From assembly GCA_030616605.1 (NCBI GenBank), contig JAUWWY010000002.1, positions 30,404 through 94,403 of the forward strand: a DNA stretch of 64,000 bases. Reading direction: 5' to 3'. The notes under the pieces are model-generated. The model ran no database searches and was not told where the DNA came from. It saw nothing but the letters and a program-made list of their open reading frames with translations. Position 1 is the stretch's first letter. Each line of letters starts with the position of its first letter. The stretch is from a bacterium (lineage in GTDB: Bacteria; Patescibacteriota; Minisyncoccia; Minisyncoccales; CG1-02-41-26). Both the position numbers and the translations under genes were made by a program. Shown here in pieces: positions 1,688 to 17,146 of this stretch.

Positions 1688-3757
1688 TTAGGGGGTGTCT
1701 GCTGTTGCCACAATTGAAGTAGTTGCGTAATAAATACCAAAAGTTTGACCCAAAGGAATCCCCATTTTCCAATAAATAGTATCAGTTGAAGTAGAAGGGT
1801 CGCTGTAGGGTTTATCCAATTCAGTCTCGATTCTCTCCCAACTAGTAGTAGAACAAGAAGTCATACTTTCATAAGCAACATTACTTAAAGAATATGCCTG
1901 TTTATCTCCGGGAATAGTAGTACCATTGCCAACCAAAATAAAATCTGTTGAAGAAGCAAGTAAGTCAAGAGCAGCATTACCAGTAGTAGTAGCAATGGTT
2001 GTTTGACTATCCGTACTGGTTCCCCCGCCTCCCAATTTTCCATAATTAATAGAAGAAATAATAATTACAGCATTAAGAGTATTTAATTCCGGAGGGTCAC
2101 CATCTGTATTGTTGCCAGTAGCTCCTTGGTTGTCTCTAGCAATTACATAGCACTGCCAAGTTTCTCCGGAATAATCGCCACTATCAGTTGGGTCAGCATG
2201 AAACCAAATATCAGCCGTGCAAGTAGCATATTTGTTGTTGCCAACTGGTGGATCCGATAAATCACAGGTTATATCCTGGTAACAATTATTATTATCTTGG
2301 GAGCAAGAAGAAGTTGCTGCCACTCCTGAACGGTAAATAGTGGCTGTAGCAGCAGTAATTTGATCACCCCCATCAAGGTCTTCTATGGTAGCTGTGCAGG
2401 TAGCAGTGGTAGTGCCATTTTCATTAACAGTAATACTTGGATAAGGGATTAAATTAACACTAGGAACTGTCGGGGGATTGTTGGGAATACCAACAGTTTG
2501 CTCATGAAATCGCACATTGCCGTTCGTCTGGGTAGTGTAGGTCAGCTGAATCTTGGAATCGCTATTATAATCTTTCCTCCCTGCAGAGAGATAGGCCAGG
2601 GATTCGCCTGACCCATCAACGATTTCGGTTTCAGACCCGGTCCAATCTATTGTAGTATCATCTGAGGTTTTGTACCAAATATCCTGAGAATCAGAACTTT
2701 TGACATAAAACGCAACGATCTCTCCATCAGTTGCATTATGGCTTAAAGACAATGTATTCACCGCCTCACCAGAGAAAACAGTGTTTTTTGCTCCGAACAC
2801 TGGCGTGGCGCTGGAAAAATCAATTGTCTGGTGAATGAGATTAGTGCCGTCTTTATACAAAACATGGGCATTGGTGCTGTCGTCGCTGACGAGTGAAAAC
2901 ATGCCGTTGGTCATGGTCAAAGCGGTTTCTGTGTCTTCCGAGGAAACAGTTATAGAGGTGTTCCATGTTGCTTTTTTCGTCCTCAATATCGCGGTGGTGT
3001 CCTGCCAGACAATCCCTATTGCATTAATGCCGATATTAACAGCAGCAACATAGTTTATTACAGTTTGATCGGTATCATCAACAGGTTGAGCGCCAGTCCA
3101 GCTGGGCGCATCAGGAGGGGCAGTGGGGTCTGCTGCTGAATCAGCATCAACATACACCTTCCAACTGTCGCCGCTATCTGTTGCGCACACCATCCACACT
3201 CTCCCGCCGGTATCAATCACCACAGCAATATTGTGTCCCTTCGCACAAGTGCCAGCGTCTTGGACAAGTCCCCAGCTAAAGTCGTCATTACCAGTGGTGA
3301 CACTGCCGTGCACATAGTTGGTTTTAGTATTAAATTGCGGGTTAATATGCACTGCGTGCAACGTGGTCCCATCTACAAAAATATCAACGCCGGCTTCATA
3401 ACCAGCTATTAGATCACTAACCCCTGAATCAACATTGACTGTCCACCCTGATATACCAGTTGATGACCACGCGTAGTCAGCATGTTCTCTGGCTCCTCCA
3501 CCGGGCCCATAATAAAAAGTATAGTAATTCTGATTCCCCACAGGGTTGCGGAACGCATAATGGAAGTTTTCGTATCGGGTGGCATCGGTGTTTTCGGTAC
3601 CAACCGTACTAGTAGCGTAAGCGATCTTTGTCTCAGGTGGCACCGGCGGCTTTTTCCAAATCTGCGGCCAACCAGAAAAAATCCAAAAGGCAACCATCAA
3701 AAAAATCACCAGAATAACTAAAGAGTTTTTAAAATTATTCTTTATAATTTTCCCCAT
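1688..3757 (-). CDS. Large surface protein, paralog C. N-terminal TM anchor, central more G+C-rich region with Asp-box-like motifs (DSGDSW, SDDTTIDW), C-terminal module shared with paralogs A and B
   Basis: 689-aa ORF. The C-terminal ~230 aa align by eye with the 724..1638 product (TTATCTATIEDLDGG..., QTTIATTTGNAALDLLASSTDFIL, SMTSCSTTS, IYWKM). Confidence 0.65.
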   Translation of the reverse strand: MGKIIKNNFKNSLVILVIFLMVAFWIFSGWPQIWKKPPVPPETKIAYATSTVGTENTDATRYENFHYAFRNPVGNQNYYTFYYGPGGGAREHADYAWSSTGISGWTVNVDSGVSDLIAGYEAGVDIFVDGTTLHAVHINPQFNTKTNYVHGSVTTGNDDFSWGLVQDAGTCAKGHNIAVVIDTGGRVWMVCATDSGDSWKVYVDADSAADPTAPPDAPSWTGAQPVDDTDQTVINYVAAVNIGINAIGIVWQDTTAILRTKKATWNTSITVSSEDTETALTMTNGMFSLVSDDSTNAHVLYKDGTNLIHQTIDFSSATPVFGAKNTVFSGEAVNTLSLSHNATDGEIVAFYVKSSDSQDIWYKTSDDTTIDWTGSETEIVDGSGESLAYLSAGRKDYNSDSKIQLTYTTQTNGNVRFHEQTVGIPNNPPTVPSVNLIPYPSITVNENGTTTATCTATIEDLDGGDQITAATATIYRSGVAATSSCSQDNNNCYQDITCDLSDPPVGNNKYATCTADIWFHADPTDSGDYSGETWQCYVIARDNQGATGNNTDGDPPELNTLNAVIIISSINYGKLGGGGTSTDSQTTIATTTGNAALDLLASSTDFILVGNGTTIPGDKQAYSLSNVAYESMTSCSTTSWERIETELDKPYSDPSTSTDTIYWKMGIPLGQTFGIYYATTSIVATADTP

Positions 3758-3816
3758 GTTCTTATTTTAGCACAAAAAACTTTCTCAAAAAAATTAAGGA
3801 TGTGGAAAAAACTAAG

Positions 3817-4911
3817 TTAAAGGTTAGTTCTTTTTAAGCTCGCTAAGATTCCCAAACCAAGATAAAAAGCCAAGAGTTGGGAGCCACCGTAGCTGACAAA
3901 AGGCAAGGGGATACCGATTATCGGCAAAACCCCAAGAGCCATTCCTATATTTATAAAACTTTGAGAAAGAAGTAAAAAACTGAAGCCAGCAGCAAATAAC
4001 CTGGTAAAATTGTCCTCAGCACTTAGGGCAATTTTCATTATCTGCCAGAAAAGAAAACTGAATAAAAATATTAAAACAAACACCCCTAAAAAACCTGTTT
4101 CTTCAGCAATAGCTGAAAAAATAAAATCAGTCTGGGGTTCTGGTAAAAAACCGTACTGGGCTTGAGAACCTTTGAAAAGTCCCTTTCCCAAAAGGCCACC
4201 CGAGCCTATGGCAATTTTTGACTGATTAATATTCCAGGAAATTCCCTGAGGGTCAACTTGCTGATTTAAAAAGCTCAAAACTCTTTGTTTTTGATAATCT
4301 TTTAACCAAAACTGCCAGGAAAACCCACCAATAATTAAAAAAACTAAAAATAAAATTAAAAAATGACGAAGTTTAATTCCAGAGAAAATAATAATTCCCA
4401 GCCAGACTGAAATCAAAATAAGAGAAGAACCAAGGTCTGGTTGAAATAAAACTAAAAAGAAAGGAATAAGAAGATAAATCCCGGAAAACAGAATTGGTTG
4501 AAACCTTTTAGTTTCAATATGACGAAAGGAAAAATACTTACTTAAAACAACAATTAAGCAGATTACAACAAGCGGTACAGGATCAAAAGAAAAAATTCCT
4601 GCTTTATACCATCCTTTAACTCCTCTTACTTCACTGCCAAATAAAAACAATCCCCCTAAACTCAGTAAACCCAAAAGATAAAAACCCAAAACTAAATAAG
4701 AATTTGTTTTTAAAAATCTTAGGTCAAAAAAACTGAAAAAAATCAGCAAAAAAATACCCAGAGCAAAAAAGGCAATTTGTTTTTTGAAATTAAAAAAATC
4801 CTCTATTCCAAGAGAAGAACTATAAATAGATAAAAGTCCAAAAGAAGTTAGAAGGAAAGCTGGTAAAATTAAAAACCAGTTAAGTTTTTTAAAATAAATT
4901 AAAAAATTCAT
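3817..4911 (-). CDS. FtsW/RodA/SpoVE (SEDS) family peptidoglycan polymerase
   Basis: 364-aa polytopic membrane protein with family-typical motifs (QPDLGS, AEETGF, PFVSYGGS). Confidence 0.85.
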   Translation of the reverse strand: MNFLIYFKKLNWFLILPAFLLTSFGLLSIYSSSLGIEDFFNFKKQIAFFALGIFLLIFFSFFDLRFLKTNSYLVLGFYLLGLLSLGGLFLFGSEVRGVKGWYKAGIFSFDPVPLVVICLIVVLSKYFSFRHIETKRFQPILFSGIYLLIPFFLVLFQPDLGSSLILISVWLGIIIFSGIKLRHFLILFLVFLIIGGFSWQFWLKDYQKQRVLSFLNQQVDPQGISWNINQSKIAIGSGGLLGKGLFKGSQAQYGFLPEPQTDFIFSAIAEETGFLGVFVLIFLFSFLFWQIMKIALSAEDNFTRLFAAGFSFLLLSQSFINIGMALGVLPIIGIPLPFVSYGGSQLLAFYLGLGILASLKRTNL

Positions 4912-13612: not shown

Positions 13613-13975
13613 TTAAAAATTTATTTCAATTTTTCTCTTTGTTTTTTTGTATTTGCCAGTCGACCAAACAGTAGTGGTTGAAGTATCAGAAACACAAACT
13701 TCATAGCTTGCTCCATTAGCTAAAGTAGCTTTATAAGCTGAAGCACAGTCTCCTAAGGCAAGAGAATATCCTTCTTTGAAAACTGCGTACAAGAGTCTCT
13801 CTATTCCGGTATCTGCCCCATAAAAAGCATTTACTGAATCACTTGTAGTCCAAATAATTTTTATTTGGCTGACTGAAATACTGACCAAAGATAAGAGAGC
13901 TGTGGTTAAAACAGAAAGAATAACAATAGTCAGATACAAAGAAACTCCTTTTTGATTTTTTTTAATATTGAACAT
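13613..13975 (-). CDS. PilX/GspK-like minor pilin (hydrophobic N-terminus, no G|F site)
   Basis: Start moved to MFNIKKNQKGVSLYLTIVILSVL... It is last in the H-I-J-K-like minor pilin series. Confidence 0.5.
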   Translation of the reverse strand: MFNIKKNQKGVSLYLTIVILSVLTTALLSLVSISVSQIKIIWTTSDSVNAFYGADTGIERLLYAVFKEGYSLALGDCASAYKATLANGASYEVCVSDTSTTTVWSTGKYKKTKRKIEINF

Positions 13976-14516
13976 CGAGGTCTCTTTGGGAAATTGTGGT
14001 TTGGAGATTAAGAGTTTGAGGTGATGCTCCAACTGTTTTCAACTTTAAAGCAAAGGTCACTTGGGGCTGAAGAACATCGTCTTGAGATGCTCCTTTGATT
14101 TCAAAAGACAGTCCCTCTACCTCAAGATTTGATGGGGTCAAAGGCATAAAATCTTTAGATTCGGGAACTGGAGGGGTACCATCAGCTAATTTTGATTTCC
14201 CTACCTTTAATTGCTTAGTCTCTAAAATAAATTCTTGACATTTTCCATTGTAATTCAAGAATCTTATACCATTAGCTATAGTTTCAAAATTATGTTTTTC
14301 AGTAATGCAATTCCCAGTAATGTCTTTTTTCGCCATCCGTAAATCCCGGCTTATATACTCTGTTAGATAGGAAGCGCTGTTTAAAAGATATGCTGAATTT
14401 AAGCTTTCTCTTTGATAATGAAAAGCAGAAGTAAAAAGGCTTAAAAAGGCAATAATTACAATGGAAAAGATAGTTATGCTAATTAGAATTTCAATTAAAG
14501 TGAAACCTTTATTCAT
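13962..14516 (-). CDS. PilW/GspJ-like minor prepilin with an intact leader
   Basis: MNKG|FTLIEILISITIFSIVI prepilin cleavage/methylation motif. Start at the ATG at 14516. Confidence 0.75.
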   Translation of the reverse strand: MNKGFTLIEILISITIFSIVIIAFLSLFTSAFHYQRESLNSAYLLNSASYLTEYISRDLRMAKKDITGNCITEKHNFETIANGIRFLNYNGKCQEFILETKQLKVGKSKLADGTPPVPESKDFMPLTPSNLEVEGLSFEIKGASQDDVLQPQVTFALKLKTVGASPQTLNLQTTISQRDLDVQY

Positions 14517-14521
14517 AAATA

Positions 14522-15064
14522 TTAACGCCAATTATATAAATTTTCTTCAACTTCAAAGGGCGAACCCTTACCTAACCAGTTTATTTCAACTTTGACATTC
14601 AAAATATCAGCCGACACTGAGTCAGGTGTAATTGTAATTTTCCTTTTAAATTTTGTATCTTGACCATTTTGATAATTATAAAATTCGTTAGAATCAATTT
14701 TTAGATAGCGACCCTGAAAAGAAACAAGGGCTAAATCATCATAGTCAATTTCACAACCGCCAGAACAATCAGTTAAACCATCATCCCAATTTACTCTTTC
14801 CAGCCAATTTGAGTCCCGAATATTTCTGACAATTTCAATTCCCTCTCTACTAAGCTGTGAGGCAATAAATTTGTTATTCTGTTCCGCTGTAATAGAAACT
14901 ACTCTGGGAACTATGGCATAGATACCAACAATTCCAATAGTCATTATTGAAACAGCGACCATTATTTCCATTAAGCTAAACCCAGCACCACTTTTATTGG
15001 GGAAAAGTGGTCTCTTGATAAAGTTGGAAATATAAAAGTGGTGCTGGGTAAATCCTTTGTTCAT
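14522..15064 (-). CDS. PilV/GspI-like minor prepilin whose leader carries a 24-codon palindromic insertion
   Basis: Reads MNKGFT-QHHFYISNFIKRPLFPNKSGA-G|FSLMEIMVAVS. Removing nt 14984-15055 gives the canonical MNKGFSLMEIM. Confidence 0.7.
   Translation of the reverse strand: MNKGFTQHHFYISNFIKRPLFPNKSGAGFSLMEIMVAVSIMTIGIVGIYAIVPRVVSITAEQNNKFIASQLSREGIEIVRNIRDSNWLERVNWDDGLTDCSGGCEIDYDDLALVSFQGRYLKIDSNEFYNYQNGQDTKFKRKITITPDSVSADILNVKVEINWLGKGSPFEVEENLYNWR
14981..15048. mobile_element. 68-bp palindromic (MITE-like) relic: 16-bp perfect inverted repeats CCCAGCACCACTTTTA / TAAAAGTGGTGCTGGG separated by 36 bp
   Basis: Arms at 14981-14996 and 15033-15048 are exact reverse complements. They match the termini of the GIY-YIG element at 15575-15857 at 15 of 16 positions. 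Confidence 0.75.
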
Positions 15065-15067
15065 AAT

Positions 15068-15838
15068 TTATTCTATTTCTATTCTCCCGGCCGAATTTAT
15101 TTTTATAATCTTCTCATCTTCTCCTAAAACAAGGATAATTTCAGCTTCTTCCCTCCAATCCTCTCCATTTATAAAAGTGATTGGGTTAGGAGGAGAAAAA
15201 ACAATGTTTAAAGCATTTGAGACCGAGGGTGATATGCTTTGAATTTGAACTCCTTTTTCTAAATTCACCTCTCTTAAAACTTTGTCATTTGCTTGAATAT
15301 AACTTTGGTCTTTATTACAGTCAGCAAAAAGAAGATAAGAAGTTGGTGAAGAAACTACGTGAAAATAAACGCCAAAATTATGAGTTTCTCCGCCAGCACA
15401 ACTTACTTCTCCAGCTCCCATTGCCATCTCCTGGGTTTCTCTTAAATCTTGTGTTAATTGATAAGCTACTCTTTGAAGGGCTAATTTTTTTTCCTCTCCT
15501 GTTTTACCTAAAAATAAAACAGAAGAGAGAATACCAATGATTATTATGGTCACCAAAAGTTCAACTAAAGTGAACCCAGCACCATTTTTAAAGCTATTTC
15601 GTGCACGCCTCTTAAACTCTTTAACGGCGTTGCCATGACCCTTCAACCTTTTCTCTCTTTCTCTGGCGTCTTGTTCTGATTGATATGCCTCATAAGATAC
15701 AAGTCGCCACGGCCTATATCGTCTGGTCGATATTTCTAAACCATTATTATGTTCATGCAACCTTCTACGAAGATCATTTGTAGATCCTATGTATACTTGC
15801 TTATATTTTGTACTTTCTAATAGATATACGTAAAACAT
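15068..15838 (-). CDS. GIY-YIG nuclease domain (aa 1-~80) fused in frame to a FimT/GspH-like minor prepilin (G88|F89TLVELLVTIIIIGIL...)
   Basis: The N-terminus is MFYVYLLESTKYKQVYIGSTNDLRRRLHEHN...YEAY...REKRLK (GIY-YIG). It is followed by NGAG|FTLVELL, the prepilin cleavage motif, and a pseudopilin body. Confidence 0.8.
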   Translation of the reverse strand: MFYVYLLESTKYKQVYIGSTNDLRRRLHEHNNGLEISTRRYRPWRLVSYEAYQSEQDAREREKRLKGHGNAVKEFKRRARNSFKNGAGFTLVELLVTIIIIGILSSVLFLGKTGEEKKLALQRVAYQLTQDLRETQEMAMGAGEVSCAGGETHNFGVYFHVVSSPTSYLLFADCNKDQSYIQANDKVLREVNLEKGVQIQSISPSVSNALNIVFSPPNPITFINGEDWREEAEIILVLGEDEKIIKINSAGRIEIE

Positions 15839-15857
15839 AATTAAAAATGGTGCTGGG
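15575..15857 (-). mobile_element. GIY-YIG gene cassette bounded by perfect 16-bp inverted repeats, inserted in prepilin leader codons
   Basis: CCCAGCACCATTTTTA (15575-15590) and TAAAAATGGTGCTGGG (15842-15857) are exact reverse complements. They are flanked by the near-identical direct repeats GGGTTCAC and GGATTCAC. Confidence 0.75.
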
Positions 15858-15873
15858 TGAATCCTTTATTCAT
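15841..15873 (-). other. Relic prepilin start: 10-codon ORF MNKGFTQHHF* whose ATG overlaps the pilD stop (ATGA)
   Basis: ATGAATAAAGGATTCACCCAGCACCATTTTTAA. It is identical at peptide level to the first 10 residues of the 14522..15064 product. Confidence 0.7.
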
Positions 15874-16637
15874 AATAAATTAAGATACCAATTAATTATT
15901 TCTCTTCCCCAAAATAAAGCAATAAATGTTCCGCTAACCAGAAAAGGACCAAAAGGTACTTTACTTGTTAAGCTTTTTTTAGCAAAAGCCACTAAACCTA
16001 ATCCTATTATAGCACCGATAAAAAATGAAAAAAATAAACCAACTAAAATATTAGGAAAGCCGAGAAAAAGACCGATAAAAAAACCTAATTTGGCATCACC
16101 TAAGCCCATCCATTTACCCCGGGACAAGAACCAAATTAGAAAGAAAAACCCTGAAGCAGCAAGAGCACTTAGAATTGAGGAATAAAAATTAGAAGTTTGA
16201 AAATTGAAAATTATTTGATAAAAAAGAACTATTATGATTGCTGGAAAAATTATTTTATCAAGGATTATATAGTGTTTAAGGTCATAAACGAAAATGACAA
16301 TTAAGAGACAAGAAATGATTGATAAATAAACAGTAAATGGTAAATCGTAAATGGTAAATCGTAAAAAAATTAAGACAAAAATAATTCCTGTGCCTATCTC
16401 AACTAAGGGATATTGCCAGGAAATTGGTTTTTGACAATACCTACACTTTCTCTTTAAGAATATAAAACTTAAAATTGGGATTAAATCAAAAAATCCTAAT
16501 TTGTGATGACAACTTGGACAATAAGAACGATTACTGAGAAAACTCTCTTTCTTTTCCAAACGATAAATCAGACAATTTAAAAAACTGCCAAAACAAATCC
16601 CAAAAATAAAAATAATTATCCCAAAAATTATATTCAT
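15870..16637 (-). CDS. pilD: Prepilin peptidase / N-methyltransferase (A24 family)
   Basis: 255 aa. N-terminal CxxC...CxxC (CPSCHHKL...CRYCQKPI), polytopic, with the conserved GLGDAKL aspartyl motif. Confidence 0.9.
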   Translation of the reverse strand: MNIIFGIIIFIFGICFGSFLNCLIYRLEKKESFLSNRSYCPSCHHKLGFFDLIPILSFIFLKRKCRYCQKPISWQYPLVEIGTGIIFVLIFLRFTIYDLPFTVYLSIISCLLIVIFVYDLKHYIILDKIIFPAIIIVLFYQIIFNFQTSNFYSSILSALAASGFFFLIWFLSRGKWMGLGDAKLGFFIGLFLGFPNILVGLFFSFFIGAIIGLGLVAFAKKSLTSKVPFGPFLVSGTFIALFWGREIINWYLNLL

Positions 16638-16649
16638 TAGCTCATTCTA

Positions 16650-16684
16650 ACAAAAAATTGCCCAAGAGAAAAATCTTGGGCAAT
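16650..16684 (-). terminator. Rho-independent terminator/attenuator after the major pilin gene
   Basis: 11-bp stem ATTGCCCAAGA/TCTTGGGCAAT with a 6-nt loop, followed on the minus strand by TTTTTTG. Confidence 0.7.
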
Positions 16685-16714
16685 TTTAGAAAATTATTTA
16701 TTGTTTAATAAACC

Positions 16715-17146
16715 CTAGCCGCTCACTGCAGGACAGGTATAAGTAGCACCCACACAATTTCCTGTTGCACCTGGATCCGTGCTAGTGAAACCAGCTATTC
16801 CAGTACTATCCGCACAATACCAGTAAGTGGCTTTAGCATTCAAGGCAGAATATATACAGGCCGCATCAGTACCAGCACTAATACCCGGGTCCACCGTATC
16901 AGGGTTATTGTTTTTAACCTCAGCACAAAGATTAACCATATCGCCAGTACAATCGAAGCTAGTGTAACTACCCTCATTAGCATAGATATAAGTCATTACT
17001 GTCCTTGCCTGGGCAATAGCCGAAACAATTCGGGCATCCTTGGCTTTTTTGGTAGCTCCGGGAAAGCTTACCAAGACAACTGAAGCCAAAATTCCAATAA
17101 TAGCAATGACTACTAATAATTCAATTAAGGTAAAACCTTTTTTCAT
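16715..17146 (-). CDS. Type IV pilin (likely the major subunit)
   Basis: MKKG|FTLIELLVVIAIIGILASVVL. 143 aa. Followed by a strong terminator. Confidence 0.85.
   Translation of the reverse strand: MKKGFTLIELLVVIAIIGILASVVLVSFPGATKKAKDARIVSAIAQARTVMTYIYANEGSYTSFDCTGDMVNLCAEVKNNNPDTVDPGISAGTDAACIYSALNAKATYWYCADSTGIAGFTSTDPGATGNCVGATYTCPAVSG

Follow-up and report, generated by a model that had tools for sequence, protein, structure and literature searches.

A stretch of 64,000 nucleotides from a Patescibacteria contig (JAUWWY010000002.1, assembly GCA_030616605.1), referred to here as the window, carries on its minus strand a 283-bp mobile element (15575–15857), composed of an inverted repeat, a gene for a GIY-YIG nuclease and a second inverted repeat. 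The element is inserted between the codons for the -1 Gly and the +1 Phe of a GspH/FimT-like minor pilin, and is flanked by a 4-bp target site duplication, TTCA. Elements of this kind have moved repeatedly between unrelated pilin genes, and non-autonomous hairpin derivatives of them are present; they are almost confined to prepilin cleavage codons, and their right end always encodes K-x-G-A-G in front of the F-T-L-x-E of the host. In the interpretation judged probable here, this is a small element of Patescibacteria, provided with a minimal nuclease of the SLX1/UPF0213 type, which would be hidden in the prepilin leader and removed by the prepilin peptidase PilD.

The genes described here are all encoded by the minus strand. 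The pilD gene, for the prepilin peptidase/N-methyltransferase (15870–16637; Pfam A24_N_bact 8.7e-33, Peptidase_A24 2.1e-15), ends with a TGA overlapping the ATG of a short open reading frame (ORF), so as to read ATGA. This stub ORF, MNKGFTQHHF-stop (15841–15873), contains the former pilin start and leader (MNKGF), crosses the left copy of the duplication (TTCA, 15858–15861; a single GGTTTCACTTTAG in the empty allele described below) and enters the left terminal inverted repeat, CCCAGCACCATTTTTAA (15841–15857), which is free of stops in all frames until its final 3 nt, the TAA of the stub. Two nucleotides after this stop lies the ATG of a fusion ORF of 256 aa (15068–15838), made of the nuclease, the junction KNGAG/F (the slash marks the predicted cut site, here and below) and the pilin. 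Its first 88 codons (15575–15838; Pfam 1.3e-16) encode the nuclease, in the position of a pilin leader; they end within the right terminal inverted repeat, TTAAAAATGGTGCTGGG (15575–15591), which encodes the final K-N-G-A-G, including the -1 Gly. The right copy of TTCA (15571–15574) provides the Phe+1 codon and the first base of Thr+2, and opens the mature pilin, FTLVELLV and onwards to the stop (15068–15574), recognized by the N_methyl hidden Markov model (HMM). Most of this layout had been read from the letters alone in a first-pass annotation, and the overlap between pilD and the stub, the stub itself and the position of the nuclease ORF are confirmed; the inverted repeats, reported there as exact over 16 bp, are indeed perfect, over 17 bp. 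The element is further bounded by the direct repeats GGATTCAC and GGGTTCAC.

The fusion protein finds its best match in the protein collection at 96% identity over 66% of the query. P0001, a protein of 172 aa starting with MNKGFTLVELL, is uninterrupted and 96% identical across the pilin part. In its contig (L001), which comes from an independent assembly with SRR22580794 as its source, the same pilD end is found, followed by ..TTATTATGAATAAAGGTTTCACTTTAGTTGAA; the 283-bp segment is absent. At the same junction the window reads GGATTCA, then 283 bp, then TTCACTTTAGTTGAA; the empty-site sequence is AATAAAGGTTTCACTTTAGTTGAA. Uninterrupted forms of the same pilin are numerous among the further orthologues (P0002–P0004, P0008, P0011 and others); in other orthologues a short insert (P0025, P0045) or, instead, the nuclease (P0005, P0023, P0030) is present. 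The same architecture recurs in dozens of independent assemblies, including contigs of 118–722 kb. The segment 15575–15857 is a real insertion, not an assembly artefact, and the empty site of L001 bears out the earlier proposal of an insertion rather than an ancestral domain.

A second insertion, absent from the first-pass annotation, is present in the next pilin gene. When a 15-mer of the repeat arm is searched with up to 2 mismatches, four occurrences are found in the 64-kb window, where 0.34 are expected (none of 100 shuffled sequences reaches four); two of them bound a nuclease-less derivative of 68 bp (14981–15048), with perfect 17-bp arms, CCCAGCACCACTTTTAT. Its host is a PilV-like minor pilin (14522–15064; N_methyl 1.2e-5; TIGR02523 PilV 4.7e-8, below the cut-off). 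The derivative is flanked by a TTTA duplication (15049–15052 and 14977–14980), so that 68 + 4 = 72 nt, or 24 codons, are added in frame, giving MNKGFTQHHFYISNFIKRPLFPNKSGAG/FSLMEIM, with a 28-aa leader ending with KSGAG/F. Folded as RNA, it is predicted to form a hairpin of -28.9 kcal/mol (z -5.5). The following pilin gene of L001 is without this 68-bp copy.

The extent of the family was evaluated by searching the 88-aa nuclease part against 1.84 billion cluster representatives, with E up to 1e-3: 7,542 representatives match. Fusions of the nuclease to a prepilin account for at least 71 of the best 150 of them, and for almost all of the top 62. In all, 112 GIY-YIG–prepilin fusions were collected, with pilin bodies falling into 23 unrelated clusters and leaders of 71–178 aa (median 95). 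Their junction is K-[S/N]-G-A-G/F-T-L-[I/V]-E: the -1 Gly, which had already been attributed to the inner repeat, is present in 112 out of 112, and Glu+5 in 111. Mobility is apparent from the comparison of nucleases and hosts. The elements of the window and of locus L002, both 283 bp long, are 88% identical at the DNA level and reside in unrelated pilin genes; more generally, in 17 of 31 pairs of nucleases at least 80% identical, the pilin bodies are unrelated. A genome scan reports more than 551 relatives, nearly all in metagenome-assembled genomes (MAGs) of Patescibacteria. A few of the MAGs bear titles of other phyla, namely Gammaproteobacteria (L006, L011, L015, L067, L079), Methylomirabilis (L013), Nitrospira (L043) and Cloacimonadota (L068); in these the element-bearing contigs have Patescibacteria-like pilin operons, and the titles could reflect either mis-binning or a genuine spread outside Patescibacteria.

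Site preference was analyzed in a set of 80 genome loci, chosen for carrying the nuclease, plus the window. In this set, 43 repeat pairs, with arms ending with GGTGCNGGG or near variants, directly precede F[T/S]L[I/V]E; the elements measure 26–106 bp when devoid of the nuclease gene and 270–409 bp when they contain it. For 28 of the 43 pairs the 4-bp flanks are identical (TTTA in 25, TTCA in two, CAAA in one), and most of the non-identical ones differ only as TTCA vs TTTA. The CAAA flanks belong to L018, where the element occupies a non-canonical site: this speaks for a genuine duplication of the target, and against a sequence brought in by the element that only imitates one. The two arms of an element co-vary, CCCCGCACC being found with GGTGCGGGG in L004, L013 and L022, and CCCCCCAC with GTGGGGGG in L021. 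Across loci the arms feature no stop codon in three frames and translate into PSTTF, QHHF or PAPL on the left and KSGAG on the right, hence the peptides GLPSTTF, FTQHHF and PAPF recurring in the fusions. An element arm is borne by 35 of the 69 strict prepilin sites in 538 kb of these related loci, which also contain 16,859 TTYA sites; since the loci were selected for the nuclease, the occupancy is to be read as an upper estimate. Even so, insertions gather at one codon far more than a preference for TTYA alone would produce. In line with the first-pass annotation, pairs of the inverted repeat are found elsewhere, almost always at prepilin cleavage codons. An exact-pattern metagenome scan for AAAAGTGGTGCTGGG is unsuited to frequencies: the matches listed are mostly single, chance-like and on unrelated, often GC-rich contigs, and among them paired arms are also found outside pilins.

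The pilin reading frame is maintained in three ways, in all of which the -1 Gly is supplied by the element and not by the host. Short derivatives may be translated in frame beginning at the former pilin start, as in the window, L011, L013 and L025; where they are out of frame, a start codon is recruited from another frame (L002, L015). Derivatives of about 105 bp carry, as a portable leader, their own ATG and 21–22 aa ending with KSGAG: such copies are found in L010 (3274–3378 and near 4370, leader MFKFIKKHKIKLRLFIKSGAG/), in L022 (4262–4366, 5717–5822 and 7913–8017, leader MDFHPKKFPTQKE..LLKSGAG/) and, on the minus strand, in L090 (10197–10299). In the third type the nuclease itself precedes the cut site. 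The stubs left upstream (MNKGFTQHHF-stop in the window, MKGFTQHHF-stop and ..QGFTQHHF-stop in L154 and L003) either overlap the ATG of the nuclease or stop 2 nt short of it; in L008 and L018 the stub is joined in frame, with no stop. Even where the nuclease gene is broken (L006, L029, L154), the frame into the pilin is still open, and none of about 15 nuclease-bearing elements is in antisense orientation to the pilin. The existence of nuclease-less derivatives shows that the inverted repeats, and not the nuclease gene, are the part acting in cis. Tandem or nested pile-ups are also seen (L034 4244–4324; L019 3985–4393; L027 3989–4348; protein P0020), where a newer copy enters the GGG/TTTA junction left by an earlier one, with leaders such as ..GLPSTTSFVKKNEEGLPSTTSFVKRSGAG/FSM.

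Both halves of the fusion are recognized by profile HMMs, as the first-pass annotation had proposed for a GIY-YIG ORF running into a prepilin motif and a FimT/GspH-like body. GIY-YIG (PF01541) matches residues 1–71 with E 1.3e-16 (61 bits, cut-off 22.6), and N_methyl (PF07963) residues 85–109 with E 9e-7 (28.6, cut-off 21.2); TIGR02532 also matches above its cut-off (1.2e-5), and the pilin part gives weak matches to TIGR01708 GspH and to ComGD. Gly-1, Phe+1, Glu+5 and the hydrophobic stretch (about 20 residues) of a class III signal peptide are all present; in place of the short hydrophilic leader, typically below about 30 residues, there is the 88-aa nuclease domain. The nuclease retains the residues that define its superfamily, namely the Tyr of GIY, the Tyr of YIG, a central Arg and a C-terminal Glu: its catalytic positions do not vary, Y16, G18, R26, H30, E62 and N70 being invariant across fusions, with conservation of at least 90% at Y3 and Y5. 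The Pfam and NCBIfam scans of the fusion, where the added domain is N-terminal rather than internal, give no Hint or intein family, nor is a transposase of known type (DDE, HUH, Ser or Tyr) present: the sole ORF of the element is the GIY-YIG one, with no other Pfam match. Public annotations list the fusions as "GIY-YIG nuclease family protein", "putative endonuclease" or "type II secretion system protein H".

The nucleases of the window and L002 differ by 23 synonymous and 9 non-synonymous changes, with a ratio of non-synonymous to synonymous rates (dN/dS) of 0.07; for the pilin, filled in the window and empty in L001, the changes are 13 and 8, a small sample, and dN/dS is 0.16. By this measure both parts are under purifying selection, and the pilin shows no sign of decay. 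An AlphaFold model, built on an alignment of 16 fusions, predicts a compact N-terminal domain, a long helix (91–141) and a beta-sheet head, with a mean predicted local distance difference test score (pLDDT) of 85; residues 1–60 score above 90, and values below 50 are confined to residues 82–89, SFKNGAG/F, at the predicted cut site. In Foldseek the N-terminal domain resembles 1zg2 (UPF0213 BH0048), Slx1 (4xlg, 7cq3) and I-TevI (1ln0), with probabilities of 0.85–1.0 and modest E-values, while the C-terminal domain resembles the pseudopilin EpsH; a sequence search of the PDB agrees, giving UPF0213 BH0048 and SLX1 as best relatives of the nuclease. The solved relatives of the SLX1 type are structure-specific nucleases. 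By our own count, residues 1–88 contain 20 K/R and 10 D/E, consistent with the positive-inside rule. As an internal start for a pilin with a short leader, the only in-frame candidate is a TTG (Leu65), which is TTA in the 88%-identical copy of L002; it was discarded as a general mechanism.

In the mechanism proposed for these elements, the old pilin start would yield the stub of 10 codons, and ribosomes would re-initiate 2 nt further on, at the nuclease ATG. The nuclease–pilin precursor would enter the membrane with its basic nuclease domain facing the cytoplasm; cleavage by PilD after Gly88 would then leave a normal mature pilin in the membrane and a free nuclease in the cytoplasm, the compartment in which such an enzyme acts. 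The insertion would be cheap for the host, because a normal pilin would be released. Prepilins enter the membrane with the leader on the cytoplasmic side; this leader is of variable length, its last residue is Gly or Ala, and the peptidase likewise works on that side of the membrane (PMC10191384). The topology is therefore compatible with a basic and soluble domain at the N-terminus. For its movement, the nuclease would cut GGN/TTYA-like sites with a 4-nt stagger, or at the base of the repeats, the insertion then being finished by host repair; new sites would always be available, since no coding motif of these genomes is more conserved, or more often repeated, than the N-terminus of prepilins.

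Removal of the 88-aa leader by PilD is plausible in the light of frame conservation, selection, membrane topology and the disordered linker. The stronger argument comes from the frame, the orientation and the pilin sequence, kept over a long time, rather than from the conservation of KSGAG. The latter is ambiguous, since KSGAG also lies within the inverted repeat and may be constrained at the DNA level, and this is one of several points which, together with the selection of the loci mentioned above, weigh against the interpretation. To our knowledge, characterised prepilin leaders are of about 30 aa or less, while a folded leader of about 90 aa is required here, and the ATG of the nuclease is not preceded by an evident Shine-Dalgarno sequence. 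GIY-YIG enzymes hydrolyse DNA, and no joining or strand-transfer activity is known for them, so that completion of the insertion must be left to host repair. Repeats, duplication and nuclease-less derivatives look like those of a cut-and-paste or copy-in element, and movement is the weakest part of the account. Targeting, moreover, is not exclusive. A related 284-bp element lies in a non-pilin gene of two MAGs (L037 743–1026; L038 3982–4265), the same insertion in both: with arms CCCCGCACCTTTTGA and a TTTA duplication, it adds 96 stop-free codons in frame to a small Cys-rich gene, giving ..GVDGCEFY/PAPFEDM..nuclease..KRCG/VYVRLIGNEVDREE, where the slashes mark the ends of the insertion. Hairpins with identical arms (CCCAGCACCACTTTT..AAAAGTGGTGCTGGG) are also found in non-pilin DNA, on contigs with 41–54% GC (L092 894–961; L093 578–614; L157 5156–5192; L160 906–946; L107 1047–1150; L110 1796–1898), and several of them lack a flanking duplication. 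Of the earlier idea of a selfish element directed to pilin genes, a strong preference therefore holds, not an absolute one. The hairpins of L107 and L110 have common flanks, ..GAGCA before and TAAAGGTTTT after the element, which suggests a larger repeat unit.

Other explanations differ mainly in the fate assigned to the pilin and to the nuclease. The fusion may go unprocessed, so that the insertion inactivates a minor pilin, or is tolerated in a dispensable one, already dead or dying. Pilin genes are many and partly redundant, with five prepilin sites in this window alone, prepilins are not known to lose a leader that is both long and folded, and decayed nuclease genes do occur (in the three loci listed above). 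A dying pilin, however, is hard to reconcile with a nuclease–pilin frame open in all 112 fusions, across 23 pilin families, with Gly-1 and Glu+5 retained, nor does it agree with the dN/dS of the filled pilin, small as that sample is. The lack of antisense insertions, the open pilin frame behind decayed nucleases and the start codons recruited or carried by out-of-frame derivatives point the same way, and loss of the pilin is considered unlikely. A similarly low probability may be given to domestication, where a cytoplasmic nuclease, specific for ssDNA or for DNA structures, would be coupled to the expression of the pilus or of competence, or the hairpins would act as recombination or regulatory sites, with precise excision possibly switching the pilin reversibly on and off. 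Standalone Ssn nucleases of the GIY-YIG type, flanked by hairpins, modulate natural transformation (PMC11893778), as in Neisseria, and Patescibacteria take up DNA by means of type IV pili (PMC12455944); the hairpin of the 68-bp copy, lying just past the start codon, could affect translation, and purifying selection on the nuclease is strong. Yet presence and absence differ among near-identical orthologues, and scatter over unrelated pilins, pile-ups and decayed copies are the marks of a selfish element; the sister clades described below, having their own repeats, occupy unrelated targets, such as DnaA-box sequences.

Removal of the element at the RNA or translation level, by intron-like splicing or by ribosomal bypass from GGA-TTC to GGG-TTC, would also yield MNKG/FTLVELL. 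The direct repeats flanking the element, the stop after the stub and the ability of the repeats to pair the two ends would fit such a process. Known bypass elements, on the other hand, are of about 50 nt, against a gap of 283 nt, and covariance models find no Rfam family, introns included, at the gathering score in 14400–16700. Splicing or bypass would not need a nuclease–pilin frame, which is nonetheless kept in 112 cases, and would not account for the stubs of L008 and L018, fused in frame rather than stopped; it is rated as very improbable. Least credible is an ancestral nuclease–pilin architecture, or a set of junctions created by chimeric assembly: nothing speaks for either beyond the recurrence of the fusion, and both are contradicted by the empty site in a 96%-identical orthologue, by the inverted repeats and duplication, by near-identical nucleases on unrelated pilins and by dozens of independent assemblies, with contigs above 100 kb. 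A pilin-borne element removed with the leader by PilD thus retains most of the probability.

Nucleases of sister clades are associated with other repeats and other sites. Standalone GIY-YIG genes with the tail ..LKKDGKALGQLKRRISESLK are found in L046, L052, L053, L063, L067, L078 and L081 (at about 3956–4271 in each), within elements of about 316 bp, which have their own inverted repeats, CCCCACACCTTTCRTTTTAT, and lie in DnaA-box-like sequence. These elements are either preceded by TGTGGATAAC[C] and followed by GATAAC.., or preceded by GTTATC[C] and followed by GTTATCCACA: the flanks have the look of a duplicated 6-bp sequence, GTTATC/GATAAC, and both orientations occur. More standalone subfamilies (L030, L031, L038 at 3638–3871, L044, L056, L082; L042, L043, L049, L075) feature their own conserved upstream sequences, translating into ..PPHQI.. 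or ..NPHTNxHF.., and presumably represent additional repeat families with other targets. As every clade of the nuclease comes with repeats and a target of its own, the nuclease may be seen as the mobility protein of the element itself. These may all belong to an unrecognised class of autonomous Patescibacteria elements of about 280–320 bp, whose sole gene would be a minimal GIY-YIG nuclease acting on its own repeats and on a short target, one clade being erased by PilD and its sisters residing on DnaA boxes and similar multi-copy motifs; the chances for and against such a class appear evenly balanced.

The genes surrounding the insertion form a minor-pilin operon, in the order pilD, GspH/FimT-like pilin, PilV-like pilin, a further minor pilin and, last, a PilX-like ORF. 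The adjacency of pilD to the element reflects this order, pilD being outside the element. The further minor pilin (13962–14531) has an unoccupied site: as previously described, an ATG at 14516 opens an intact MNKG/FTLIEIL. Overall, three of the prepilin sites of the window are unoccupied. Between pilD and the pilin gene at 16715–17146, a stem-loop was read by eye at about 16655–16682 on the minus strand (GCCCAAGA-TTTTTC-TCTTGGGC, then AATTTTTTG): its appearance is that of an intrinsic terminator, in which case the operon would begin with pilD. A scan for promoters and terminators gave nothing above shuffled expectation, this stem-loop also not being listed, so that a promoter borne by the element cannot be claimed.

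If PilD cuts these precursors, selfish DNA would reside inside coding sequence at little cost, by borrowing a signal-type peptidase of the host, and a third route to phenotypic silence would stand beside introns and inteins. Prepilin peptidases would accept folded leaders of about 90–180 aa, a property of possible use as a release tag. With 283 bp and an 88-aa nuclease, this is possibly the smallest autonomous mobile element, and it may provide a compact site-specific nuclease whose target is defined. Dozens of Patescibacteria pilins are filed as nucleases, and pilin inventories ignoring the fusions are wrong; type IV pili are central to the DNA uptake and epibiotic life of these bacteria.

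The arrangement of a nuclease in a prepilin leader appears not to have been described before: the first-pass annotation knew of no description, and in a full-text literature search no paper was found linking GIY-YIG nucleases to prepilins or pilin leaders, nor does a 2024 review of prokaryotic transposable elements of the miniature inverted-repeat type (MITEs) mention pilins or GIY-YIG. The closest functional precedent for the nuclease may be seen in the Ssn family, standalone GIY-YIG nucleases whose gene lies between hairpin repeats, which these enzymes bind and cleave in single-stranded form (Chenal et al. 2025, PMC11893778). The layout is shared: a single-domain GIY-YIG of about 90–100 aa lies between copies of a hairpin repeat, which is also found solitary elsewhere, and the IS-like "repeat-gene-repeat" organization is remarked upon by the same authors (PMC11893778). 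The repeats are unrelated, the arms being CCCAGCACCAYTTTT here and CGTCATTCCCGCG..GCGGGAAT in Ssn; compared by eye, the former are also unlike the SRM/NTS motif CGTCATTCCCGCGMAVGCGGGAATCYRG. Here, unlike in Ssn, the two arms are a single inverted pair, bordered by a duplication of 4 bp, empty sites can be demonstrated, and the element lies within coding sequence, at a specific codon, being translated into a host protein. Ssn (cd10448) was compared by description; the nearest solved relative of the element nuclease is UPF0213 BH0048.

Rickettsia palindromic elements and intragenic MITEs are likewise short palindromes lying in frame in genes and translated (PMC10969869), and the derivatives of 26–106 bp, with arms free of stops in all frames, act like them. 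The Rickettsia elements are distributed over unrelated genes and kept in the mature protein (PMC10969869); those described here cluster at the prepilin cleavage codon and bring the KSGAG that should remove them. For the latter, in addition, an autonomous, nuclease-bearing partner can be identified. With insertion sequences (ISs) and MITEs are shared the terminal inverted repeats, of 17 bp, the 4-bp duplication and the coexistence of autonomous and non-autonomous copies; the difference lies in the sole protein, a hydrolytic GIY-YIG nuclease rather than a DDE, HUH, serine or tyrosine transposase. A length of 283 bp is far below that of any IS known to us. Insertions with GIY-YIG genes, not introns, have been reported in rRNA genes of the Candidate Phyla Radiation (PMC11270868): they belong to the same bacterial group, but are located in rRNA genes, not in protein leaders, and no repeats, duplication or link to pilins are reported in that paper.

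Homing endonuclease genes of introns and inteins, such as I-TevI, offer a further parallel, where a selfish nuclease occupies a highly conserved host site, presence and absence are polymorphic, and the cost is masked by removal from the gene product. The nuclease in a conserved site and the empty alleles in relatives are both found here. Copying by repair alone, with no terminal repeats, duplication or derivatives, does not describe these elements: unlike homing elements, they end in inverted repeats, are flanked by a duplicated target and include MITE-like derivatives, and their nuclease is without a separate DNA-binding domain. Finally, neither an intron nor a Hint/intein domain is involved: where introns and inteins are removed by self-splicing, removal would be performed here by the leader peptidase of the host, at the N-terminus of the protein.

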